A stretch of DNA of 64,000 bases from Alphaproteobacteria bacterium (lineage in GTDB: Bacteria > Pseudomonadota > Alphaproteobacteria > Rhodospirillales > Rhodospirillaceae), in assembly GCA_039908285.1 (NCBI GenBank), contig JAMOBE010000001.1:21155-85154 (forward strand), in the 5' to 3' direction. The stretch's first letter is position 1. The number at the start of each line of letters is the position of its first letter. The position numbers and the translations under genes are program-made. Shown piece after piece: positions 6,580 to 37,558 of the stretch. The notes under the pieces were generated by a model. The model was not told where the DNA came from. It ran no database searches and was given only the letters and a program-made list of their open reading frames with translations.

Positions 6580-7371
6580 ATGGAAACCGAGACCGATCAG
6601 AGCCGCGACGGCACCACCCATTTTGGCTTCCGCACCGTGGCGGCGGAGGACAAGGTGTCACTGGTGCGTGGGGTGTTCGACAGCGTGGCGTCCCGCTACG
6701 ACCTGATGAACGACCTGATGAGCGTCGGCATCCACCGCCTGTGGAAGGCGGCGCTGATCGACTGGCTGGCGCCCCGGCCGGGGATGGTCCTGCTGGACGT
6801 GGCCGGGGGGACCGGCGACATCGCCTTCCGCTGCCTGGACCGGCTGGCGGGGCGCGGGGAGGGACCAGGGGAAGTTCCGGGCGAGGTCATCATCTGCGAC
6901 CTCACGCCCGACATGCTGGCGGTCGGCCGCAACCGCGCCCTCGATGCCGGGCGGGTGCACGGGCTGACATGGGTGTGCGGCAATGCCGAGGCCCTGCCCC
7001 TCGCCGATGCCAGCGTCGATGCCTATACCATCGCCTTTGGCCTGCGCAACGTCACCCGCATCGACGCCGCCCTCGCCGAGGCGCGGCGGGTGCTGAAGCC
7101 CGGCGGGCATTTCCTGTGCCTTGAGTTCAGCCACGTGGTGATCCCGGTCCTGCGGACGCTTTACGACCGCTACTCCTTCACCGTCCTGCCGGCGCTGGGC
7201 CAGGTGGTCACCGGCGACCGCGACGCCTATCAGTATCTGGTGGAGAGCATCCGCCGCTTCCCGCGACAGGAAGATCTGGCGGCGCTCATCACCGCGGCCG
7301 GCCTGCGGCGGGTGTCGTTCCGCAATCTTTCGGGTGGCATCGCCGCCATCCACTCGGCATGGCGGATCTGA
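6580..7371 (+). CDS. ubiE: Ubiquinone/menaquinone biosynthesis C-methyltransferase UbiE
   Basis: [44 protein letters not shown] plus the SAM motif [13 protein letters not shown]. Start moved to ATG 6580 (METETDQ) because the 5' part of the track ORF overlaps the REP/IS end. Confidence 0.92.
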
Positions 7372-7378
7372 GCCCACG

Positions 7379-8917
7379 ATGATCCGCTCCATCCGCAACA
7401 TCGTCCGCCTGGTTCACATCGTGCGCGTGCTGGCGCGCCACGATGCCCTGTTCCCCATCGAGCGCGTCACCGCCGTGCGCGACCTCGCCTATCTGGCCAA
7501 GCTGGTGACCCGCCGCGGCCCGCCCGGGCGCCCCGGCCAGCGGCTGGCCCGCGCCATGGTGGAGCTGGGGCCGGCCTTCATCAAGCTCGGGCAGACCCTG
7601 TCCACCCGCCCCGATGTCATGGGCGAGGACGTGGCGGCCGATCTCACCTCGCTCCAGGACAAGCTGGAACCTTTCCCCGCCGACGAGGCGCGGCGCATCA
7701 TCGAGAGCGACTTCGAACGGCCGCTCGAGGAGCTGTACTCCGAGTTCTCGGCCGAGCCGGTGGCGGCCGCCTCCATCGCCCAGGTCCACTTCGCGACCAC
7801 CACCGACGGGCGGCAGGTGGCGGTCAAGGTCCTGCGCCCCGACGTGGCGAAGAAGTTCGAGCAGGACATCGACGCCCTCTACTGGCTAGCCGAGATCGTC
7901 GAGCGCACCCAGCCCGGCTTCCGCCGCCTGAAGCCGATCGAGGCGGTGCGCACCTTCGAGGACACGGTGGCGATGGAGATGGACCTCCGCTTCGAGGCCG
8001 CCGCCGCCGCCGAGCTTCACGACAACTTCGCCGGTGACGACACCTTCCGCGTGCCCATGGTCGACTGGCAGCGCACGTCGCAGCGGGTCCTGACCACCCA
8101 GCGGGTGGTGGGCATCCCGGTGGATGAGCGCGAGCGCATCATCGCCGCCGGCATCGACCCCCGCGCCATCGTCGAGAAGGCCGCCAACGGCTTCTTCAAC
8201 ATGGTGTTCCGCGACGGCTTCTTTCACGGCGACCTGCACCCGGGCAACATGTTCGTCGGCGAGAACGGCGAGGTCATCCTGGTGGACTTCGGCATCACCG
8301 GCCGGGTCGACCGCGCGACGCGGCGCTATCTGGGCGAGATGCTGCTCGGCTTTCTCACCGCCGACTACCGGCGGGTGGCCGAGGTTCATTTCGAAGCCGG
8401 ATACGTTCCCGCCGACCGCTCGGTGGATACCTTCACCCAGGCCTGCCGCTCGGTGGCCGAGCCCATCTTCGGCAAGCCGATGAACGAGATCTCCATCGGC
8501 CGCCTGCTCGGGCACCTGTTCAAGGTCACCGAGACCTTCGGCATGGAAGCCCAGCCCCAGCTTCTCCTGTTGCAGAAGACCATGATCACCGCCGAGGGCG
8601 TCGGCCGCCTCCTCAGCCCCGACGTCAACATGTGGACCCTGGCCCGCCCCCTCATCGAGGGGTGGATGCGCGAGACTCTGGGACCCGAGGCCAGGCTGCG
8701 CCAGATGGCCACCGACCTCACCTCGTCGTTCGAGCGCCTGCCGCGCCTTTTGGAACACACCGAGCGCACCGCCGCCATGTTCCGCTCCGGCGGCCTGAAG
8801 CTGCACCCCGAGACCGTCGCCGAGCTGACCGGCCGGCGCGGTCGGCGCTCCTTCTTCACCACCCTGCTGCCGTGGGTTCTGGTGGCGATTCTGGCCAGCA
8901 TGCTGCTGGCCCGGTGA
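7379..8917 (+). CDS. ubiB: Ubiquinone biosynthesis regulatory kinase-like protein UbiB (ABC1 family)
   Basis: Contains FIKLGQTLSTRPDV, PVAAASIAQVHFA, VAVKVLRP and HGDLHPGNMFV, with C-terminal TM helices. Directly follows ubiE. Start taken at ATG 7379 (MIRSIRNIVRL). Confidence 0.92.
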   Translation: MIRSIRNIVRLVHIVRVLARHDALFPIERVTAVRDLAYLAKLVTRRGPPGRPGQRLARAMVELGPAFIKLGQTLSTRPDVMGEDVAADLTSLQDKLEPFPADEARRIIESDFERPLEELYSEFSAEPVAAASIAQVHFATTTDGRQVAVKVLRPDVAKKFEQDIDALYWLAEIVERTQPGFRRLKPIEAVRTFEDTVAMEMDLRFEAAAAAELHDNFAGDDTFRVPMVDWQRTSQRVLTTQRVVGIPVDERERIIAAGIDPRAIVEKAANGFFNMVFRDGFFHGDLHPGNMFVGENGEVILVDFGITGRVDRATRRYLGEMLLGFLTADYRRVAEVHFEAGYVPADRSVDTFTQACRSVAEPIFGKPMNEISIGRLLGHLFKVTETFGMEAQPQLLLLQKTMITAEGVGRLLSPDVNMWTLARPLIEGWMRETLGPEARLRQMATDLTSSFERLPRLLEHTERTAAMFRSGGLKLHPETVAELTGRRGRRSFFTTLLPWVLVAILASMLLAR

Positions 8918-12848: not shown

Positions 12849-13055
12849 CAGGGCAATCGTGTGAAAGAGTGAAAGCCGCCACCTTCACTCCCTCTCCCCC
12901 TCGAGGGGGAGAGGGCCGGGGTGAGGGGGTGGGGCAGGCGGCACCACCTTGGGAGCTTCGCGCCCCCCTCACCCAAACCCTCTCCCCCCGAAAGAGGGGG
13001 GAGAGGGCTTTTGATGATTCCCGCGCCAAAGCATTTCTTTCACCCGATTGCCCCG
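12849..13055. repeat. REP/MITE composite with terminal inverted repeats CAGGGCAATCG(T/G)GTGAAAG
   Basis: TIRs at 12849-12867 and 13037-13055. Internal hairpin units: CCCTCTCCCCCTCGAGGGGGAGAGGG and CCCTCTCCCCCCGAAAGAGGGGGGAGAGGG. It lies between the uvrA start and the cheY-like stop. Confidence 0.85.
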
Positions 13056-18699: not shown

Positions 18700-19827
18700 A
18701 TGGTAGGTATACTCGACGCGACCGGCTTCACGGCGAGCAACAGTCTGAAGACGCTCGTCATGAGCAAGATGCAGGAGTCCTACGCCAAGCAGCTCGACGA
18801 TTCCAGCGATACGACCGCTGCCGAGGGGCAGGCCAGGTACAACCGCATCCTGGACGACGTCCAGGTCGTGCAGAGCAACAAGAGCAGGCTTTCCCTGGCG
18901 GCGATGTTCGTTGCCGACAACCTGAAGAACATCACCGCCATCAAGGATGCGCTGTTCGATATGAAGGTCTGCGTCGAGAAGGCCGCCGAGGCTGGCGCGG
19001 ATACCTCCTATTGGGCGGAAAGATTCGACAAGGGCCTGCGCACCGTCAACAGCAAGGCCGATGCCTTGCCACGGAACACCAACCTTCTCGGCAACTGCGG
19101 CCAGACGGTGTGGAACGAGCCGTCGATGGCGTATCAGACGGACGCATACGGCTCGACCACGACGATCCAGGGCAAGTACATCGGCTCCGACATGTACATC
19201 GACGACTCGAACGGCAAGAAGTGGGTCCCGGATTGGGGCTCTTTGACGATTCAGCAATATGACACCTACTCCAACACCGGAAACTCGTCCGCCAACGTCA
19301 AGACGAGTACGGATTCGCCGTCGTTCACGAATGGTCTGCGACTCGATTCCTTCACCGAGGCGACCGGAGCGATCACCTTTACCACCTATCCCGAGGGCGG
19401 GGCCTCGTCACAGTCCGTGACGGGGACGGTGACGCGAGGGGGCCTGGACGTGATGCCGGCGTGGATGTACGGCGGTCTGACCACGACCCTCGACGCCACG
19501 GCCATGACCCGCGCGACGGCCGATATCAATACCGCGCGTAGCCAGGTGGAGGCGTTCGAAGCGACCCTCAAGGCCGTCCATTCCGGGATCAAGGGCAAGG
19601 AAGGGACCCTCGCTGCCTCCGTCGAGGCCATGAACGACGAAGGCATGAATGTTCTGCGTGACACGTACACGGCGTCGGCGATCAGAAGGCAGGATGTCCA
19701 GGCGCGCTATCAGGGAATGGTCATGACCCTCCAGTCCATGATGGACTCGCAGAACTCCTATGCGTCCCTTTTTGCCGGCGCGGGCGTGGACAAGATGACC
19801 GGCCTGCTTTACGACGGTTACTTCTGA
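18700..19827 (+). CDS. Hypothetical protein with helical N- and C-terminal regions around a Ser/Thr/Gly-rich core (flagellin-like architecture; homology unproven)
   Basis: 375 aa, with GGAG 8 nt upstream of the ATG. The ends are Ala/Gln/Leu-rich helical segments (...RRQDVQARYQGMVMTLQSMMDSQNSYASLFAG). The centre is T/S/G/Y-rich (YSNTGNSSANVKTSTDSPSFTNG). No canonical flagellin motifs. Confidence 0.55.
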   Translation: MVGILDATGFTASNSLKTLVMSKMQESYAKQLDDSSDTTAAEGQARYNRILDDVQVVQSNKSRLSLAAMFVADNLKNITAIKDALFDMKVCVEKAAEAGADTSYWAERFDKGLRTVNSKADALPRNTNLLGNCGQTVWNEPSMAYQTDAYGSTTTIQGKYIGSDMYIDDSNGKKWVPDWGSLTIQQYDTYSNTGNSSANVKTSTDSPSFTNGLRLDSFTEATGAITFTTYPEGGASSQSVTGTVTRGGLDVMPAWMYGGLTTTLDATAMTRATADINTARSQVEAFEATLKAVHSGIKGKEGTLAASVEAMNDEGMNVLRDTYTASAIRRQDVQARYQGMVMTLQSMMDSQNSYASLFAGAGVDKMTGLLYDGYF

Positions 19828-21187: not shown

Positions 21188-22020
21188 GCGTTTCCAGCGA
21201 TATCAAGCGGATTACCATTCGCGACATCCGGCTGCGCAAGGGGGGGGAGCCCATCGTGGTGCTGACCGCCTACACGGCGCCGATGACCCGGTTTCTCGAT
21301 CCCCACGTGGACGTGCTGCTGGTGGGAGACTCGTTGGGAATGGTGGTCTATGGCATGGAGACCACCCTTGGCGTCACCCTCGACATGATGATCAATCATG
21401 GGGCGGCGGTGGTGCGGTCGTCGCGCCGGGGGTGTGTCATCGTCGACATGCCGTTCGGGTCCTATCAGGAGTCGCCGCAGGTGGCCTTTCGCGCCGCCGC
21501 GCGGGTGATGGCGGAGACGGGGTGCGCCGGCGTCAAGCTGGAGGGCGGTGTCGAGATGGCCGAGACCATCTCCTGGCTGGCCCACCGGGGCATACCGGTC
21601 ATGGCTCACGTCGGGCTGCGGCCGCAATCGGTGCACGCCCTGGGGGGCTTCCGCGCCCAGGGGCGGGAGGACGCCGACGCCCAGGCGATTCTGGCCGATG
21701 CCGTCGCCGTCGCCGACGCCGGCGCCTTCGCGGTGGTGGTGGAGGGGACGATGGAGCCGCTTGCCCGCCGAATTACCGAAACCATCGCCATTCCGACCAT
21801 CGGCATCGGCGCCTCGGTGGCCTGCGATGGTCAGGTGCTGGTGACCGAGGACATGCTGGGGCTGTTCACCGAGTTCCGCCCCAAATTCGTGCGTCACTTC
21901 GCCAACCTGGGTCCGGCCGTCACCGAGGCCATCCAAACCTACGCCGCCGACGTCCGCGCCCGCCGATTCCCCGGTCCGGAGCACTGCTTCGGAATGAAGG
22001 CCGTTCGAAGCGGGGAGTGA
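21184..22020 (+). CDS. panB: 3-methyl-2-oxobutanoate hydroxymethyltransferase
   Basis: [55 protein letters not shown]...[10 protein letters not shown]...[10 protein letters not shown]. Overlaps the coxG-like stop by 4 nt. Confidence 0.93.
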
Positions 22021-22072
22021 TGTCGGCGAGTCTGATGGTTGACACACGATGTCACTGGGACGATGCGGTCAT

Positions 22073-22168
22073 CAGCGTGCGTGTGTTGAGAAAAAGGCGC
22101 AACACGGATGAACACGGACATCCACGGATGAACACGGATGTAGCGGAGTTTGACATGGGCTAAAGTGA
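22073..22168. repeat. CACGGAT decamer-array element, truncated single-arm copy 3
   Basis: CAGCGTGCGTGTGTTGAGAAAAAGGCGCAACACGGATGAACACGGACATCCACGGATGAACACGGATGTAGCGGAGTTTGACATGGGCTAAAGTGAG aligns with the reverse complement of the right half of copy 2 (arm plus GAGTTTGACATRGGCTWAAGTG). No second arm follows. Confidence 0.75.
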
Positions 22169-22459
22169 GAAACACGCTGGCACAGGCTTTCCGTACTCCC
22201 CATGACGTCTGATCCTGGAGGGAACGGGGAGCGCGAGGGCCTCCAGGCCCTCGCTCTTATCCTGACCGTATCGGACCGGTCCCTACTTCTTCTTGTCCTT
22301 CTTGCGGCCAACCTCGGCCCACACCTCACGAACCAAGGCCTTGAACGCCTCGTCCCGGGGAATCGGATGGATGTCCGCGTCCGCCAACACATGACGATTG
22401 GCAGTTCTTCCTTGCGGTAGGAAGAAGGCTGTAGCACTTATTGTTGCGGGTCCTGGTCA

Positions 22460-22975
22460 CCTGTTCCCGCAGGGTCGACTCGGTGGAGGAGCCGAAGCGG
22501 CCGCCACATGCTCAGCGACCGCCGCCAATTGGTTGTTGTGCCCCATATGACTGTCCCAGTAGTTTCAACGCTGCTCTCTTGTTGGCCCGTGCCCTGGCCA
22601 CCTGTTCCCGCAGGGCCGTCTTGGTAGCGGAACCGAAGCGTTTTTCCACCTGTTCATAGGCAGCCACTGCCTTCGCGTACTGCTTCGACTGGTTCAACGA
22701 GATGCCCTTGTAGACAAGTGCCCTGGCCACCTGTTCCCGCAGGGCCAACTCGGTAGCGGAACCGAAGCGTTCTTCCACCTGCTCATAGGCAGCCACTGCC
22801 TTCTCGTATTGCTTCAACTGGTCCAACGAGATGCCCTTGTAGACAAGTGCCTTGGCCAACCGTTCCTGTTCCTGCGAGGCCAGTTCGGTGGCGGAGCCGA
22901 GGACGATCTCCACCTGTTCAAAGGCAGCCACTGCCTCGGAGTTGCGCTCAAGCCTACGCCACGCGACGCCGTTAT
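22460..22975. repeat. 129-bp tandem repeats (three in-frame units plus a decayed fourth unit extending past the stop codon)
   Basis: The unit boundary GTGCC(C/T)TGGCC recurs at 22589, 22718 and 22847 (period 129). 22460-22588 still aligns (…CCTGGTCACCTGTTCCCGCAGGGTCGACTCGGTGGAGGAGCCGAAGCGG…) but lies across and beyond the stop at 22512. Confidence 0.85.
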
Positions 22976-23777
22976 TGTACTGCGCCTTAGCCACCTCCTC
23001 GGGCGTGGCACCGGGTGTTCTGGACGCTTGGTCAAACAAAGACTGAGCCGCAGAAAAGTCGTCTTTGAAATAGGCATCAAGCGCCTTCGCCATCCAATCG
23101 TTGAATGTTCTTGCATTCTCCTGTTTCGTGTCAACCTGTTTTGACACGGTTTCGACCTGTTGGCGTTCCTCTGCGGATGGTGGTTTAGCACCAACTTTGC
23201 CAAGGTCGTCTGTATAATTTGCAATATTAACTCTATATTGTTCAATGATGGCATCTGTTTTATTCTTAGTTTCAGCGTCAATCCTCTCGAGAAGTTCGTC
23301 AGTTTGTTTCTTCGCACTCTCCACGAGCGCATCAACTATTGCTGTTCTGCTTTCTACGGCTGACTTGGCCAGTTCGTCGATACGGTCCTTTCCTTCATTC
23401 TGAATCCATTTGTCAACGGCCGACTTCGCTTCTGCTTTGAAATATGCATCGCCGCTTTTTGTCAGCCATTCCTGGAATGAATTTGCGGCCTTGTCCTGGG
23501 AGAAGATGAAGCTGGCAATGGATGCCGCTGCGATCAGCACGCCAATGCCCGTGAAAAACCAGCCAAGCGGCGCCAGATGGATCGACAGATCGCGAATCCG
23601 GTCGTTCTGCGCGGCGGTCTGCGCCGCAAGCAGTTTTGCCAGGCCCTCGTGCCTTTCCTTCAGCTTGTCGAGTTCGGTCGTCGTGGCGGACAGTTTGGCG
23701 CGGAGGTCCTCCACATCGGCCGCGGGTGCGGGCTGGGGTACTCCTGGTTTTGCCATATGTCTCGAGTGATACGTCAT
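22512..23777 (-). CDS. Membrane-anchored coiled-coil / TPR-like repeat protein
   Basis: N-terminal coiled coil, one TM helix (LAPLGWFFTGIGVLIAAASIASFIF), a helical region, then three ~43-aa repeats (ALVYKGISLxQxKQYxKAVAAYEQVExRFGSATExALREQVAR). AT-richer than the backbone. The start may be ATG 23756 (MAKPG). Confidence 0.7.
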   Translation of the reverse strand: MTYHSRHMAKPGVPQPAPAADVEDLRAKLSATTTELDKLKERHEGLAKLLAAQTAAQNDRIRDLSIHLAPLGWFFTGIGVLIAAASIASFIFSQDKAANSFQEWLTKSGDAYFKAEAKSAVDKWIQNEGKDRIDELAKSAVESRTAIVDALVESAKKQTDELLERIDAETKNKTDAIIEQYRVNIANYTDDLGKVGAKPPSAEERQQVETVSKQVDTKQENARTFNDWMAKALDAYFKDDFSAAQSLFDQASRTPGATPEEVAKAQYNNGVAWRRLERNSEAVAAFEQVEIVLGSATELASQEQERLAKALVYKGISLDQLKQYEKAVAAYEQVEERFGSATELALREQVARALVYKGISLNQSKQYAKAVAAYEQVEKRFGSATKTALREQVARARANKRAALKLLGQSYGAQQPIGGGR

Positions 23778-23957
23778 AGGCGCATCCTATGCCGATCACG
23801 TTATCATGACAAGACGTCGCAGGCATGCGCTACTCCATCACGCATCCCTCCTCAGGGCAATCGGGTGAAAAGTGAGTTGCGGACAGAACCCCGTCGCAGA
23901 CGCTGGACAAGGGGCGATGGATCCTGTACAAGCGGCAACTCGCAGCGGGGTTCCCGT

Positions 23958-24033
<76 letters not shown>

Positions 24034-24082: not shown

Positions 24083-24119
24083 CGGATGGCAGATGGACGC
24101 GCGTGCCATCTGCCATCCG
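24083..24119. terminator. 14-bp perfect hairpin between tRNA-Phe and the convergent operon end (probable bidirectional terminator)
   Basis: CGGATGGCAGATGG-ACGCGCGTG-CCATCTGCCATCCG. It lies 50 nt after the tRNA and 9 nt after the stop of the minus-strand 320-aa gene. No strong U-tract. Confidence 0.45.
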
Positions 24120-24127
24120 GTCGTCGC

Positions 24128-25090
24128 TCAGCGGGTGAGCAGCGCGGCGTCCCGGCTGGCGCGGGACATTCGCCAGACGCTGGCGAACTGGGCGGCGCGG
24201 CTCGCGAACTCCGGCATCACCACCGTAATTTCGGCGTGACTGCTCAGAGTCGCCTGGTCGATGGTGTTGCGGACGATCGACTCCACACGATCGGCATCGA
24301 CCCGGTGGATGATTTCCGCTTCTCCTTTGCCGTCCGAAGCGGCGATGCGGGCGTCGGAGGACGAGGCCTGCATGGTCGCGACCGGCGTCGGGGTGGATGC
24401 CGGCGTGGATACTGACGCCGACGTAGACGCAGACGTAGACTCCGGCGCGGACGCGGACACCGGGGTCGGCGACCGCGTGTCGCTCGCCGTCACGGTGGAC
24501 GCTGGAGATGGTCCGGCCGTCGGAGTCGCGGCGATGGCTGACGATGTAGGGGCTCCCGTTGGGCTAGCCGCGGTGATCGGCGCTGAGACCATCACGGGAG
24601 CCGGCACGTAGGCCACCGCGGGGGCAGGCGCCGATGGAGCGGGTGTCGATGGAGCGGGCGTCGAAGCGGGTGCCGCCGTGGCCGCCACCGCCGGAGCGGC
24701 GGGTTGGACGGCGGGAGAGGACGTGACCACCACCGCAGGTTGTTCTGAGGTCCGGCTTGGCGTCGGCTGTGGCCAGGCGGCGGAAATGGCCGCCGTGACG
24801 GCCGCGGTCGTCGCTTTGGCGTCCCCGAGGGTCAGGAAGGTGCTGAGTCCGAACATCCGGGTCGGAAGGGTCACGGCGGTATCGACCCGCACCGCGAAGT
24901 CGAGCTTCAGTCCGCGTATTTCAAAGCCGCCGCGCTGGTCCGCCAGTTCGGAACGGCCGAGAGACGAAAAACCGGCCAGCGGGTCCTCTGCCACCGAGGA
25001 CTGTGCTGGCCGGGCCATAAGCGACGTCATCGACAGGACGACGAGTCCAGTCACGGCTCGTCGTACCGTCCCTTGTTTTCCTTGTATCAT
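24128..25090 (-). CDS. Secreted Ala/Pro/Ser/Thr-rich protein with a double-glycine leader-like motif after the signal peptide
   Basis: Signal peptide (VTGLVVLSMTSLMARPAQS), then DPLAGFSSLGRSELADQRGG, a ~60-aa domain, a ~150-aa low-complexity APST linker (TPAPSTPAPSAPAPA...), and a ~70-aa C-terminal domain. ATG 25090 lies ~10 nt after GGAG. Confidence 0.75.
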   Translation of the reverse strand: MIQGKQGTVRRAVTGLVVLSMTSLMARPAQSSVAEDPLAGFSSLGRSELADQRGGFEIRGLKLDFAVRVDTAVTLPTRMFGLSTFLTLGDAKATTAAVTAAISAAWPQPTPSRTSEQPAVVVTSSPAVQPAAPAVAATAAPASTPAPSTPAPSAPAPAVAYVPAPVMVSAPITAASPTGAPTSSAIAATPTAGPSPASTVTASDTRSPTPVSASAPESTSASTSASVSTPASTPTPVATMQASSSDARIAASDGKGEAEIIHRVDADRVESIVRNTIDQATLSSHAEITVVMPEFASRAAQFASVWRMSRASRDAALLTR

Positions 25091-25121
25091 ATCGTGTTTC
25101 TCCACACTCCTGCTTTAGGGT

Positions 25122-25805
25122 CTAGAACTCGTTCAGTCTGGGCAGCAGCAGCGAAAAACCGGCCAGTCCGCGTCGATCGACGCCGGCCGCCAGGGGTCCC
25201 CGTCGCCGGATGCGCCATTCCTCGTCTCGATTGAAGGTGGTGCGCGCCGGCTCGATGTCGTCGCGCACGACGAACATCACCCGGTCCCACACCTCCTCGA
25301 AGTCGCCGCGGCGCATGACCTTGAGCCCAAGGGCCGGATCGCCGACCAGGACATGGCCGTCCCGCGTTCCCTTCACCACCACGAAGTGCTTGTAGCCCCT
25401 GATGCTGATGAGGGTGATGGCGGGGACGCCGATCTTCGCCAGTTCGTCGAGAGTGATCCTGAAGCCGTCGGCCCGGAGCCCCCGCATGGCCAGAAAGTTC
25501 TGCATGTCGAGAAGAGAGAAGCCATAGCGACGGATGTCGTCCTGGTTGCCCACCTGGAACATGGCGGCGAAAGCCTGTTCCTCGTCGGTGGGACGGCCGT
25601 AGTGATGGGTCAGCAGGGTCGCCACGGCCGCCGATCCGCAACTGAAGTCATAGCGCTGACGAACCACCGTGGCGAACCTGGCCTCGCGGAGACTGGTCAC
25701 CGGAACCGATATCCGCAGGCCGGCGATGCCGGCCTCCACCGTTCCCGCGTCCGCCGGTGCCGCCACCCACAGGGCGGCGGACGCCAGAACGATCCCGAGG
25801 GCCAT
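25122..25805 (-). CDS. Stand-alone secreted C39-family cysteine peptidase (FapD-like architecture)
   Basis: Signal peptide MALGIVLASAALWVAAPADA. Catalytic Q-x5-CG (VVRQRYDFSCGSAAVATLL), His (GYKHFVVVKG) and Asp (LVGDPALG). No ABC transporter domain. Start moved to ATG 25805 because the longer track ORF translates a REP element. Confidence 0.85.
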   Translation of the reverse strand: MALGIVLASAALWVAAPADAGTVEAGIAGLRISVPVTSLREARFATVVRQRYDFSCGSAAVATLLTHHYGRPTDEEQAFAAMFQVGNQDDIRRYGFSLLDMQNFLAMRGLRADGFRITLDELAKIGVPAITLISIRGYKHFVVVKGTRDGHVLVGDPALGLKVMRRGDFEEVWDRVMFVVRDDIEPARTTFNRDEEWRIRRRGPLAAGVDRRGLAGFSLLLPRLNEF

Positions 25806-25811
25806 TCCAAC

Positions 25812-25933
25812 AAGCCCTCTCCCCCCTCTTCCGGGGGGAGAGGGTTGGGTGAGGGGGGTGCAGAGGCTCCTGAGAAGGTGCCGCTTGCCCCACCCCCTCA
25901 CCCCGGCCCTCTCCCCCTCGAGGGGGAGAGGGA
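25812..25933. repeat. REP composite (two hairpin units) inside the operon, between the 128-aa gene and the C39 gene
   Basis: AAGCCCTCTCCCCCCTCTTCCGGGGGGAGAGGGTTGGGTGAGGGGGG...CCCCACCCCCTCACCCCGGCCCTCTCCCCCTCGAGGGGGAGAGGGAG. Nearly identical to 35962-36083. Confidence 0.9.
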
Positions 25934-25998
25934 GTGGGTTGGCAGAAGTGCCCTTAAGCTCACGAGTCAAAGTCCGACGAACCGGCATCGCGACCTCG

Positions 25999-26385
25999 CT
26001 ACTGCAGGTAGATATTGACGCTCATGGTGTAGTTCATGTTGACGAGGTTCCCGGTGTTCTGGATCACCGAGGCCACGCCGTGGTTGCCGCTGAGCAGCGC
26101 CGGGGCGATGGCGCCGTTGGCCATGCTGGCCCCGGCGCCTTCGTTGGAGATGCCGCTTGCCGTGTTGGCGGCCCGGGAGTCCGAACTGTTGCCCTGGACG
26201 ATGGTCCGCAGATCGACGGTTTCGGCACCACCGCTCAGTCCACCGAGTTCGGTCGTGGAGAGGGACGCGAAGGCCGCCAGGACGTCATCACTGGCGGCGG
26301 CCGGCCCGGCGACGGCTACGCCCAACGCGAGGATAAGTCCCGCCGCCGCACCAGGTGCCTTCGCATTACGATTCGTCCCACGCAT
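25999..26385 (-). CDS. Small secreted protein with a double-glycine leader motif and curlin-like C-terminal motif
   Basis: 128 aa. Signal peptide (AAAGLILALGVAVAGPAAAS), then DDVLAAFASLSTTELGGLSGG, which matches LSxxELxxIxGG. Gly/Ser/Asn/Ala-rich mature part ending GVASVIQNTGNLVNMNYTMSVNIYLQ. Confidence 0.75.
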   Translation of the reverse strand: MRGTNRNAKAPGAAAGLILALGVAVAGPAAASDDVLAAFASLSTTELGGLSGGAETVDLRTIVQGNSSDSRAANTASGISNEGAGASMANGAIAPALLSGNHGVASVIQNTGNLVNMNYTMSVNIYLQ

Positions 26386-26446
26386 GGGGGTTCCTTTCGC
26401 TCGCGAAAAAGCCCGGCGGGCCAGGTTGGCCCGCCGGAACCGTGGT

Positions 26447-28549
26447 CTAGTGGAACGATGCGTTGGCGTTGACGCTGATGGAGTGGACCTGGTTGACGTA
26501 CATGCCGGTGCTCTGCGCGATGCTGATGATGCCGCGAGAGTTGTCCATGGTCAGGCCGGCGAGGGCGCCGGTGTAGAACGTGGCCGACACGTTGCCGCCG
26601 TTGCCGGCGTTGTTGGTGCCACCGGTCGCATTGGCGGTCTGGCTGTTGCTGACCGTCTGATCGTTGGCGGCATGCTGGGTGCTGGCGGCGTCCTGGGTGT
26701 TGTTGGCCGCCTGGTCGCTGGTCGCCTGCTGGCTGTTGCCGGCCGTCTGATCGTTGGTGGCGGCCTGCTGGGTCTTGGCCTTCTGGTCGCTGGAAGCCGC
26801 CTGGTCGTTGTTGGCCGCCTGCTGGGTCTTGGTCTTCTGAGCACTGGTGGCGGCCTGGTCGTTGGTGGTGTTCTGCGCCGTCTTGGCCTTCACGTCAGTG
26901 CGGGCATTCGGATCGCTCGACGCGGTAAGAGTGTTGCCAGCGGTCTGATCCGCAGCGCCCGTCTGATCGTTGGTGGCGGTCTGGCTGTTGCCGGTCGTCT
27001 GATCGTTTGGACCACCGGTTGCCGTCGATTGAGAGGTCGGGCTGCCGGCCGCCGGATCGCCTGCGGTGGCGGTTGCCGCCTGATCGGTACGGTTCTTCGC
27101 CGTGGCATAACGAGCACCGCCGTCGCCACCTGGTGTCGCGGCTGCCGCCGCGGCTGTCGCCGGAATTCCATCCGGGGTCGGGGAGGCCGCTGCCGCCGCT
27201 GCTGCCGCTGCCGCACCGTCGCCGCCGTTGCTGTCGCCGTTGTTGCTGGCGGAGCTGCCGCTGAGGCTCAGGTTGGCGGCACCGGCCAGGCTGGCGGCGT
27301 TACCACCAATGCTCTTGCTGCGGCTGTCGGCGTCGCCGGCATAGCCCCAGGTCTTGGCATAGCCCTTGTTCTTCGCGGTGGCGTCGTTGACGTCGGCCCG
27401 ATTCCTGGCGGTGGCGTCGTTGGAGACGTCAGCCTTGGCCTTGGAGCTGCCATTCAGATCGGCGTCAGACCAGGTCTTGGCCTTGGCGTCGTTGCTGAGC
27501 GTGGCGTCGGCCGTCGTGGTGCCCTTGTTCTTCGCGGTGGCGTCGTTGCTGAGATCGGCATCGGCCTTCGTGTAGCCCTTGTTCTTCAGAGAAGCGTCGT
27601 TGGTCGCATTCGCGTCGTTCTTGGTGTAGCCCTTGTTCTTGGCGGAGCCGTCATTGCTGACGGTGGCGTCGTTGCTGGCCTTGCCCTTGTTCGTGGCATA
27701 GCCCTTGCTCTTCGCGGTCGCTTCGGCGCCGTAGGCATCGCCGCCGGTGGTGTTGCCGGTGGAGCTGTAGATCTCGCTGTAGCTGTTGGTGGCATTCAGC
27801 TCGGTCTTGTTGACCTGACGAAGGTTGTAGGAGTCGAAGATGTTGCCGGTTCCGGCCACGGCCGGACCGCTGCCCGAATGGGCCAGCATGGCGGCGCCAT
27901 TGGCGACATCGCCGTTCTCGGACAGGGCCGAGCCGCCGGTGGCCACGTCGCGGTTCTTCTGGATGGAGTTGCCGCTCGAGGCATCGCCACTGTCGGTGGC
28001 CGCCGAGCCATTGTTGGCGACGGCGTCGGTGCCGGTCGCCGAGCCATTGTTGGCGTTCTTCACGTTGCCGCTGCCCGAGGAGGCGGAGCCGTCACGGGCC
28101 AGGCCGGCATCGCCGGAGCCACTCGCCACCGAGCCATTGTCGGCGAACGGGCTGAAGGCGTCGCCACTCTTGGTCGCGGCCGAATGCTGGGTCGCGGCGG
28201 CGCTGTCATAGAAGGCGGACTCGCCGGCCTTCAGAGCCGTCGAGCTGTTGTTGGCCATCACGTCCCCACGCATGGCCTGGCTGGCGTTGGCGGCCGCGAG
28301 GCGGGCGCTCAGGGCGGTGGCGCCGCCGGTGGCCTGGGCACCGCTGCCATTGTCCATGAGGGTTGAGCCGTTGGCGACCGAGGGACCGCCATACTGGGCG
28401 GTGCTGCCCTGTGCGGCCACGGCGTCACGGGCGGTGATCGCGGAGGCGTCGGGCCCGACGGCGACCAGGGCATCCTGCGCCTGCGCTCCGGACGAAATCG
28501 CAGCCATCAGCGCCAGGGCCGAAGCGCTGGCAAGCAAGTCGAATCTCAT
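26447..28549 (-). CDS. Large secreted repeat-rich fibre/adhesin-like protein (700 aa)
   Basis: ATG 28549 lies 8 nt after GGGAGA. Signal peptide MRFDLLASASALALMAAISSGAQA. Three compositional modules: NGS/GD-rich, K/N/D/A/T-rich ~11-aa repeats (NDATAKNKGYTK...), and Q/T/N/A-rich TNDQxA repeats. C-terminus GIISIAQSTGMYVNQVHSISVNANASFH. Confidence 0.8.
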   Translation of the reverse strand: MRFDLLASASALALMAAISSGAQAQDALVAVGPDASAITARDAVAAQGSTAQYGGPSVANGSTLMDNGSGAQATGGATALSARLAAANASQAMRGDVMANNSSTALKAGESAFYDSAAATQHSAATKSGDAFSPFADNGSVASGSGDAGLARDGSASSGSGNVKNANNGSATGTDAVANNGSAATDSGDASSGNSIQKNRDVATGGSALSENGDVANGAAMLAHSGSGPAVAGTGNIFDSYNLRQVNKTELNATNSYSEIYSSTGNTTGGDAYGAEATAKSKGYATNKGKASNDATVSNDGSAKNKGYTKNDANATNDASLKNKGYTKADADLSNDATAKNKGTTTADATLSNDAKAKTWSDADLNGSSKAKADVSNDATARNRADVNDATAKNKGYAKTWGYAGDADSRSKSIGGNAASLAGAANLSLSGSSASNNGDSNGGDGAAAAAAAAAASPTPDGIPATAAAAAATPGGDGGARYATAKNRTDQAATATAGDPAAGSPTSQSTATGGPNDQTTGNSQTATNDQTGAADQTAGNTLTASSDPNARTDVKAKTAQNTTNDQAATSAQKTKTQQAANNDQAASSDQKAKTQQAATNDQTAGNSQQATSDQAANNTQDAASTQHAANDQTVSNSQTANATGGTNNAGNGGNVSATFYTGALAGLTMDNSRGIISIAQSTGMYVNQVHSISVNANASFH

Positions 28550-28790
28550 GAGCCTGTCTCCCAATGCGACGTGTTGATCGTTCGCGTGCCGGGTACGGTT
28601 GACCGCGGCACAGCCCCCTTCCGCAACCTCCGTGCCACCCGAAGCGACTCGCGGCAATCCATTGATTCGACAAGATTTTTGCAGTAGCCAGGCCGCATCG
28701 TCATGGCGTCACGATCCTTTCCGGTGTACACGGGTGGTACAGTGATGTTCAGTGGTGTGACAGTCCGTGGTTGCGGGAGGGATGGAGCCG

Positions 28791-35961: not shown

Positions 35962-36083
35962 AAGCCCTCTCCCCCCTCTTCCGGGGGGAGAGGGTTGGGT
36001 GAGGGGGGCGCGAGGTTCCCGAGATGGTGCCGGTTGCCCCACCCCCTCACCCCGGCCCTCTCCCCCTCGAGGGGGAGAGGGAG
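35962..36083. repeat. REP composite (two hairpin units), same orientation and near-identical to 25812-25933
   Basis: AAAGCCCTCTCCCCCCTCTTCCGGGGGGAGAGGGTTGGGTGAGGGGGG...CCCCACCCCCTCACCCCGGCCCTCTCCCCCTCGAGGGGGAGAGGGAG. Confidence 0.9.
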
Positions 36084-37462: not shown

Positions 37463-37558
37463 CAGGGCAATCGGGTGAACCGATCAAAAGCCCTCTCCCC
37501 CCGGAAGAGGGGGGAGAGGGAGTGAAGATGGCGGCTCTCACTTCACCCGATTGCCCTG
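37463..37558. repeat. Minimal REP/MITE unit: 17-bp TIRs (CAGGGCAATCGGGTGAA) around a single hairpin
   Basis: TIRs at 37463-37479 and 37542-37558. The core is CCCTCTCCCCCCGGAAGAGGGGGGAGAGGG. Confidence 0.85.

Follow-up and report, generated by a model that had tools for sequence, protein, structure and literature searches.

The fibres assembled by Fap systems are major components of biofilm matrices, and Fap is the closest described relative of the locus considered here, a four-gene C39 peptidase locus in a 64,000-nt stretch of high-GC alphaproteobacterial DNA (G+C 0.57-0.74 across 2-kb blocks). We refer to this whole stretch as the window. Fap has been reported from Beta-, Gamma- and Deltaproteobacteria alone, FapA is often missing from genuine fap operons, and Dueholm et al. 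treated most matches to their FapD and FapF hidden Markov models (HMMs) as members of larger families (PMC3792158). FapD acts in the periplasm and its active-site Cys is needed for secretion, while mature FapE is without its first ~70 residues. Periplasmic processing of FapE by FapD has previously been proposed, and the same source called FapD's substrate and recognition sequence unclear in 2017 (PMC5557850). In a 2025 review FapD is 'thought to process' FapE and FapF (PMC12822426). We think it probable, with some reserve, that the locus in the window is a self-contained sigma-54-dependent four-gene operon of a large, unannotated sister family of Fap, working by the export route set out below.

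The four genes are as follows.

26447..28549, minus strand: gene for the 700-aa large subunit (open reading frame (ORF) 26447-28657, ATG at 28549)
25999..26385, minus strand: gene for the 128-aa small subunit
25122..25805, minus strand: gene for the C39 peptidase (ORF 25122-25988, ATG at 25805, 227 aa)
24128..25090, minus strand: gene for the 320-aa FapE-like protein (ORF 24128-25105, ATG at 25090)

The ORF listing agrees with the coordinates given for these genes in the first-pass annotation of this DNA, except that the C39 product has 227 residues where the annotation had 228.

The C39 peptidase and its relation to Fap

The 227-aa protein is the only one of the four with a Pfam or NCBIfam match. 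It matches PF03412 with 64.4 bits (cut-off 22; E 1.2e-17) over residues 47-181 and has no further domain. NCBI has an identical protein (P0001) under the name 'C39 family peptidase'; it comes from an alphaproteobacterial metagenome-assembled genome (MAG), where it is encoded on a contig of 92,243 bp. Residues Q50, C56, H140 and D156 align with those of LahT150, a double-glycine protease whose solved structure (6MPZ) includes its leader peptide, and all four are invariant in 85 of 85 homologues. Asp53 is invariant as well. That the catalytic set is intact and stands without an ABC (ATP-binding cassette) transporter domain, as first supposed, is thus borne out. The AlphaFold model of the peptidase (predicted local distance difference test score, pLDDT, 85.9) superposes on the peptidase domains of 6MPZ, ComA and PCAT1 with a template-modelling (TM) score of 0.76-0.82 over the target and a root-mean-square deviation of 2.3-2.5 A, and its top matches in the PDB are 6MPZ, 5XE9, 3K8U and PCAT1 (E about 1e-7). 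Among the NCBIfam models, FapD (NF058616, an equivalog) gives 157.2 bits and E 3.7e-46, below its curated cut-off of 330; as a control, Aeromonas FapD scores 249 bits on the same model. FilB gives 131.5 bits and E 3.6e-38, below its cut-off of 475. Neisseria NapP is also a detectable homologue, with 32% identity.

In FapD-like proteases the C39 core is followed by a conserved C-terminal extension of ~45 aa (window positions 25122-25256, residues ~184-227). In it F191, W197 and P204 are invariant, conservation reaches at least 90% at N192, R211, L214 and the last residue, F227, and AlphaFold leaves residues 206-227 unstructured. The extension could dock to a barrel protein or act in autoinhibition.

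The partner proteins are rich in Ala, Ser, Gly, Thr and Asn, repetitive and predicted to be disordered, and they have a C-terminal module in common; they look like fibre subunits. None of the 700-, 128- and 320-aa proteins contains a Cys. The 700-aa protein has a signal peptide followed by imperfect 18-aa repeats rich in Ala, Ser, Gly, Thr, Asn and Asp (tandem 54-nt repeats in the DNA), with no leader motif and no Pfam or NCBIfam match. Its C-terminal 61 aa are 34% identical to the C-terminus of the 128-aa protein (E 1.6e-9), which consists of a signal peptide, a leader and one C-terminal module (GVASVIQNTGNLVNMNYTMSVNIYLQ). Modelled with AlphaFold, the 128-aa protein is disordered (pLDDT 45.6), a short helix in the leader being the single confident stretch; such predicted disorder would be consistent with an amyloid-type subunit, for which it is weak evidence. 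The 320-aa protein has a signal peptide, a leader and a conserved segment F-x-phi-G-x-G-phi-x-phi-x-F-[GA] (phi, hydrophobic), and then a long insert rich in Ala, Pro, Ser and Thr before its C-terminal module. The N-termini of the 128- and 320-aa proteins are paralogous (39% identity over 51 residues, E 2.9e-5).

To place the locus we searched a single genome for each species, which gave more than 340 loci with relatives of the protease, and studied the best 80 together with loci from metagenome contigs. When the ORFs are clustered a conserved layout emerges: first a large protein, which is variable, then a small one (110-170 aa), the C39 gene, and last a protein of 160-430 aa. The HMM built on the small protein matches the ORF immediately upstream of the C39 gene in 83 of 85 loci (window copy E 4.5e-13) and also matches, weakly, repeats within some large proteins. 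An HMM of the N-terminal domain of the FapE-like protein matches one ORF per locus, directly downstream of the C39 gene, in all 85 (window copy E 2e-12). A profile search with full-length FapE-like proteins returned 7 matches and was probably swamped by the low-complexity Ala/Pro/Ser/Thr words of the window protein. The small subunit matches 945 database clusters, every one a 'hypothetical protein' and none with a Pfam domain, Ralstonia solanacearum and Cupriavidus being among them. Carriers of the sister family include Ralstonia solanacearum, Cupriavidus, Halomonas, Geobacter-group bacteria, Thioalkalivibrio, Lysobacter and many Alphaproteobacteria; Telmatospirillum sp. J64-1 and Cupriavidus metallidurans CH34 are culturable examples.

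A FapF-like barrel is encoded within 7 kb in 73 of the 80 loci, scoring E 1e-41 to 5e-54 on NCBIfam FapF (NF058560), below the cut-off; it also matches Acinetobacter FilC, more weakly. A sigma-54 activator stands beside the operon in 50 of the 80. In 54 of the 73 relatives with a barrel, the barrel gene is a separate convergent unit. The close relatives L081, L084 and L088 have the same arrangement including barrel and activator, and a fourth, L089, has the four-gene core before its contig ends.

Some matches in a plasmid collection (H12, H15, H22) came from 'plasmid' records that are whole chromosomes and almost unannotated (for example NZ_AP026896.1, 4.9 Mb); because the records are chromosomes, a plasmid location is not inferable from them.

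For comparison with Fap itself we turned to a genuine fap operon found in the plasmid collection, that of Aeromonas caviae, which is among the species curated by Dueholm et al. The operon matches the FapB, FapC, FapD, FapE and FapF models. Its FapE (HFAPELADGELAHLRGRYVSSHGISYFGIEF) contains the motif ELAHLRGRY, and the consensus of the FapE-like proteins, eL..mRGGf.ig-Gl.i.FGi, aligns with it in hhalign at E 4.3e-4 and a probability of 34%. A FapE HMM has been published that draws on 69 curated sequences, those of pseudomonads among them (PMC3792158 supplement); it has Leu/Val/Ile at node 33, Glu at 37, Leu (0.75) at 38, Leu/Met/Gln at 41, Arg at 42, Gly (0.93) at 43, Arg/Lys at 44, Tyr/Phe at 45 and Phe-Gly at 54-55 (PMC3792158). 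These nodes agree one by one with the N-terminal motif of the FapE-like proteins, except that the second Gly of this family stands where canonical Fap has Arg or Lys. The common columns suggest that the 320-aa protein is the counterpart of FapE and that a leader-like motif may be general in FapE proteins.

In the A. caviae strain used, KAM479 (locus L085, 3598-4740), an IS-type (insertion sequence) transposase gene lies between the sigma-54 activator and fapB, and the fapB frame is without a recognisable signal peptide; the operon may be disrupted in this strain.

The likeness to Fap extends over several features. Both systems have a stand-alone periplasmic C39 protease followed by a FapE-type protein with L-x3-R-G-x-aromatic ... 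F-G, and in both, small and large secreted subunits with common repeat modules are encoded upstream of the C39 gene and the monomers are predicted to be disordered. A FapF-type barrel and a sigma-54 activator adjoin in most relatives, and Aeromonas fap also has an activator. The first-pass annotation could name no described system with this arrangement; that claim did not survive, given the FapD match at E 3.7e-46, the FapE motif, and the linked FapF homologue and sigma-54 activator of most relatives. There are also differences. Here the large-subunit gene precedes the small one, whereas the Fap order is FapB then FapC; there is no Cys, hence no CxxC motif, and no FapA-like gene was recognised (a FapA-named NCBIfam model had no match among eight window proteins, and such a model may not exist). 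The FapE-type leader has Gly at P1 where Fap has Arg or Lys, and here the small subunit bears a leader too. The barrel gene is usually convergent in the relatives and is absent from the window, and the host is an alphaproteobacterium. Judged from its sequence, we regard the locus as a distant Fap relative and not a fap operon; we file it as a variant because of the missing Fap repeats and FapB, FapC and FapE model matches, the reversed gene order, the lack of Cys and the convergent barrel.

The supplementary table of the 2013 Fap survey contains the remarks 'FapB contains elements of FapE, probably a chimera' for Rhodanobacter sp. 115 and Shewanella woodyi, and 'extra FapD and FapF' for Cupriavidus basilensis and Burkholderia terrae (PMC3792158 Table S1). 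Both would fit a leader common to two subunit types and the existence of a sister family.

A double-glycine-type leader motif behind the signal peptide

Double-glycine leaders have hydrophobic residues at positions -15, -12, -7 and -4, Glu at -8 and Gly at -2 and -1. Two such motifs occur in the window.

26227..26271, minus strand: leader FASLSTTELGGLSGG of the 128-aa protein (P15 to P1)
24926..24970, minus strand: leader FSSLGRSELADQRGG of the 320-aa protein (P15 to P1)

Both had been noticed in the first-pass annotation, although its ranges extend 9 nt further upstream. The leader peptides that we take as candidate protease substrates are SVAEDPLAGFSSLGRSELADQRGGFEIRGLK and SDDVLAAFASLSTTELGGLSGGAETVDL. 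Both window leaders have F-15, L-12, E-8, L-7, G-2 and G-1; position -4 is L in the 128-aa protein and Q in the 320-aa protein. When the whole window is translated in all six frames, two matches to the pattern [FLIVMWY]xx[LIVMF]xxx[ED][LM]xxxxGG result, which are these two leaders, against 0.24 +/- 0.5 in residue shuffles, and the leader-profile HMM matches these two ORFs alone.

The leader is also kept in the orthologous neighbours of the C39 gene, a check that the first-pass annotation had called for: it is carried by the ORF after the C39 gene in 85 of 85 loci and by the small ORF before it in 83 of 85. No third leader-bearing ORF was found at any locus with a leader-only HMM, and since the large proteins are without a leader by this short HMM, they are not counted among the leader substrates. 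When the sequences are aligned on the putative cleavage site, P12 is hydrophobic in 94% of the FapE-like and 98% of the small proteins, P8 is Glu in 55% and 33%, P7 is Leu or Met in 100% of both, P4 is hydrophobic in 82% and 37%, P3 is Arg in 98% and 72%, and P2 is Gly or Ala in 100% and 99%. P1 is Gly in 96% of the FapE-like proteins; in the small proteins it is Arg (51%), Gly (32%) or Lys (9%). Beyond the site, P1' is Phe, Leu, Tyr, Met or Ile in 100% of the FapE-like proteins and is not hydrophobic in the small ones (Glu and Asp are commonest), and P6' is Gly in 91% of the FapE-like proteins. As read from this alignment, the motif is spaced like a double-glycine leader, with a hydrophobic residue at P12, Glu at P8, Leu or Met at P7, a hydrophobic residue at P4, Gly or Ala at P2 and Gly at P1. 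The motif is not a chance match.

Within the literature accessible to our search we found no paper that defines this motif. We tentatively propose that the leader (hydrophobic -12, E-8, L/M-7, hydrophobic -4, R-3, G/A-2, G/R/K-1, aromatic +1) is what the whole FapD family recognises and cleaves, present in Pseudomonas FapE, in Acinetobacter FilA and in the small and FapE-like proteins of the present family (at least 340 species), and that the window holds a working operon whose barrel is unlinked. If this is true, it points to a widespread export route, consisting of Sec, periplasmic removal of a leader and a FapF-type barrel, in which a bacteriocin-type leader has been moved across the inner membrane. 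The relatives point to one short alignable motif, of which the window has the canonical Gly-Gly form, and the locus thus offers a specific candidate for the recognition sequence of FapD. It also exposes a large and entirely unannotated sister family that extends Fap-like machinery beyond the three reported classes.

A proposed export route and its alternatives

Several features bear on the expression of the operon.

28623..28637, minus strand: sigma-54 (-24/-12) promoter TGGCACGGAGGTTGC, upstream of the 700-aa gene and 74 nt from its ATG
26412..26438, minus strand: terminator- or attenuator-like hairpin of 12 bp, 10 of them G-C, with CTTTTT after it, between the large- and small-subunit genes

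The promoter sequence TGGCACGGAGGTTGC is the single exact match to TGGCAC-N5-TTGC in the window, with correct spacing of the -24 GG and -12 GC. Upstream of the C39 gene an exact motif is found on the gene strand in 18 of 85 loci and on the opposite strand in none; with at most one mismatch it is found in 53 loci on the gene strand and in 21 on the opposite strand. The hairpin after the large gene fits a major subunit that is highly expressed and downstream genes that are less so.

Signal-peptide-like starts had been claimed for all four proteins. Each has a 12-residue segment with a mean Kyte-Doolittle hydropathy of 1.9-2.6 within its first 26 residues, and 1-3 Lys or Arg precede it in the 700-, 128- and 320-aa proteins; a hydrophobic start of signal-peptide type is thus present in all four. 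We infer that Sec exports all four products. The 700-aa protein would be the major, repeat-rich fibre subunit, with the hairpin lowering expression of the genes downstream, and the 128-aa protein, with one shared C-terminal module, a minor subunit or nucleator; the 320-aa protein would be the counterpart of FapE. Once the signal peptide is off, the 128- and 320-aa proteins would retain a propeptide of 22-24 residues with double-glycine spacing. The FapD-like C39 protease may then bind the leader and cut after Gly-Gly, which would give the FapE-like protein the highly conserved new N-terminus F-E-I-R-G-L-K-L-D-F-A. The processed, unfolded subunits would cross the outer membrane by way of a FapF-type barrel and assemble extracellularly; genes for this barrel and for the sigma-54 activator presumably lie outside the 64-kb window. 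Such a two-step maturation, export by Sec and then periplasmic Gly-Gly cleavage, had been put forward in the first-pass annotation. It is plausible and consistent with Fap, but it is not new, because processing of FapE by FapD has already been proposed (PMC5557850).

A number of observations count against this route as a whole or against its parts. From its annotated start the C39 peptidase has no Lys or Arg before the hydrophobic segment, that is, no basic n-region. The similarity to FapE is confined to a short segment (hhalign probability 34%), and NCBIfam FapB, FapC and FapE have no match among the window proteins (FapB and FapC none at E<0.1). We rebuilt the published FapBC repeat HMM from the PMC3792158 supplement. 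It recognises three repeats each in A. caviae FapB (8e-25) and FapC (3e-34); with default filters it matches no ORF of the 85 loci, and with filters off its best E in the window is 170. No FapF-like barrel was found in the 64-kb window by tblastn or by hmmsearch with filters off (best E 0.14), and no sigma-54 activator by hmmsearch (best E 0.035). Arg or Lys stands at P1 in canonical FapE as well as in 60% of the small subunits, and in 47 loci the small subunit has Arg or Lys at P1 while the FapE-like protein of the same locus has Gly. Classical C39 enzymes would refuse Arg or Lys at P1, which suggests that the scissile bond or the specificity differs, or that some leaders are uncut.

The possibility that the large and small subunits are unrecognised FapB and FapC proteins was dropped, the Fap repeat HMM being negative for the family; the first half of the repeat alone is weakly similar.

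For the P1 residue there are three possibilities: a permissive S1 pocket, a cut after the invariant Gly/Ala, or leaders some of which are bound and not cut. There is also an alternative that we regard as rather unlikely, in which the conserved motif is a binding or targeting element and not a cleavage site, and the true substrate of the protease is elsewhere, for example in a linker of the barrel protein. The motif might then dock to the FapF-type transporter, be gripped by a non-cutting, chaperone-like C39 domain, or act as a half-repeat that templates assembly. The Arg or Lys at P1 in about 60% of small subunits and in canonical FapE would be accommodated in this way, as would the residues after the motif, which are as conserved as the motif (P1' aromatic or hydrophobic in 100%, P6' Gly in 91%), as expected if they formed a single folded or binding unit. 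A similar string, A-L-S-x-x-R-G-x-x-G, also opens every Fap repeat in FapB of Aeromonas, and some C39-like domains are non-catalytic substrate binders (PMC5135000). Against a binding role for the motif, the Q, C, H and D residues are invariant in all 85 homologues, secretion depends on the catalytic activity of FapD, and FapE loses its N-terminus in vivo (PMC5557850). The spacing of P12, P8, P7, P4, P2 and P1 is moreover that of cleaved leaders, the nearest structure is a leader-bound double-glycine protease, and both window leaders end in Gly-Gly. Because of these Gly-Gly ends, it is in the window that the classical reading of cleavage after Gly-Gly fits best.

The absence of a barrel from the window, which the first-pass annotation had also noted, may be viewed in two ways. 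Among the relatives with enough flanking DNA, two alphaproteobacterial MAG loci, L021 and L031, are alone in having no linked barrel. One view is that the locus is an orphaned or decaying Fap-like remnant that has lost its barrel and activator and exports nothing. The contrast between 64 kb without a FapF-like gene or sigma-54 activator and a barrel at most 7 kb away in 73 of 80 relatives would agree with this, as would the unusually long low-complexity insert in the FapE-like protein; partially deleted fap operons have been described by Dueholm et al. (PMC3792158). A repeated element inserted between the small-subunit and protease genes points in the same direction.

12888-13007, 25815-25934, 35965-36083 and 37491-37520: four copies of a GC-rich nested palindromic element resembling repetitive extragenic palindromic (REP) sequences or miniature inverted-repeat transposable elements (MITEs), with arms CCCTCTCCCC...GGGGAGAGGG

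No copies of the element are expected by chance in the window. One copy occupies the unusually long gap of 193 nt between the small-subunit and protease genes, and this gap, element included, folds at -113 kcal/mol (z -3.8). Decay is nevertheless improbable in our judgement. The four frames are intact. The protease has kept its catalytic residues, the 128- and 320-aa proteins their leaders, and the operon a perfect sigma-54 promoter. The barrel, being a separate convergent unit in 54 of 73 relatives, is able to move independently, and L021 and L031, likewise alphaproteobacterial, also do without a linked one. The search for barrel and activator covered the window; the source contig has another 28 kb, which, like the remainder of the MAG, lie outside it. 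From the intact genes and the kept promoter we argue that the barrel and activator of a working operon lie elsewhere in the genome.

Other described systems and flanking features

Two further systems combine a C39 protease with a FapF-type protein. In the Neisseria nap island these are the periplasmic NapP and the pore NapF, which occur with Gly-Gly substrates (PMC11798529). The nap substrates NapA-C are small cationic autolysis peptides, and nap is without repeat-rich large subunits and without a FapE-like protein. Given the homology of NapP to the window protease (32% identity) and the union of C39 protease, FapF homologue and Gly-Gly peptides in one island (PMC11798529), the locus might be a bacteriocin- or microcin-like system, or one for autolysis peptides of the nap type, whose C39 protease matures small toxic peptides for a FapF-like pore. 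We consider this very improbable. The leader proteins here have 128 and 320 aa and are not peptides of <10 kDa, they have modules in common with the 700-aa repetitive protein, no immunity-like gene was recognised at the window locus in the ORF, Pfam and NCBIfam listings, and the large-subunit gene is retained across the whole family.

The second is the Acinetobacter fil system (filABCDEF, a 'putative pilus system'), for which a literature search found no characterisation. FilB is a homologous stand-alone C39 protease, FilC is a FapF homologue, and FilA has a signal peptide and then a similar string, MQSMDDAALSAATGQDG. The window protease reaches 131 bits on FilB against a cut-off of 475, however, and the subunits are unrelated: NCBIfam finds no counterparts of FilA, FilD (FadL-like), FilE or FilF at the locus, while the controls in Acinetobacter baumannii DETAB-P16 (L086) all pass. 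In that control locus filB is split into ORFs of 145 and 130 aa (6848-7687), which may reflect a pseudogene or a sequencing error.

The PCAT/AMS exporters (ComA, LahT, PCAT1) have in common with the locus the protease fold, the catalytic residues and the leader spacing. They differ in that the protease here is a separate Sec-exported protein without an ABC transporter, the substrates have a Sec signal before the leader, P3 Arg is nearly invariant, and Arg or Lys is possible at P1 in the relatives. A reading of the locus as a PCAT/AMS exporter or as a type I secretion system (T1SS) for a bacteriocin was rejected: the ABC-exporter models cover the C39 domain only, and no ABC transporter, membrane-fusion protein or small-peptide genes are present among the neighbours.

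Curli (csgBAC/csgDEFG) resembles the proposed system in having a Sec-exported disordered major subunit and a small nucleator with common repeat modules, and a dedicated outer-membrane channel. There is no sequence relationship, and curli has no protease and uses the CsgG channel instead of a FapF-type barrel.

Downstream, the operon faces a tRNA gene.

24084..24118, no strand: 13-bp inverted repeat, read from the sequence, between the last stop codon and the 3' end of the convergent tRNA-Phe gene
23958-24033, convergent to the operon: tRNA-Phe

The inverted repeat is likely to mark the end of the transcription unit. No repeat of the tRNA-Phe 3' end, which would be a sign of an island boundary, occurs within the 64-kb window, and because there is no second tRNA 3' end in the window, an island boundary at tRNA-Phe is not demonstrable.

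Two other parts of the window stand out. An ORF of 375 aa at 18700-19827 on the plus strand, unrelated to the locus, is rich in Ser, Thr, Asn and Asp and has no Pfam or NCBIfam match. The interval 22001-24033 has a lower G+C than its surroundings (0.566 vs ~0.67 nearby), and a 421-aa tetratricopeptide repeat (TPR) protein is encoded there beside tRNA-Phe.

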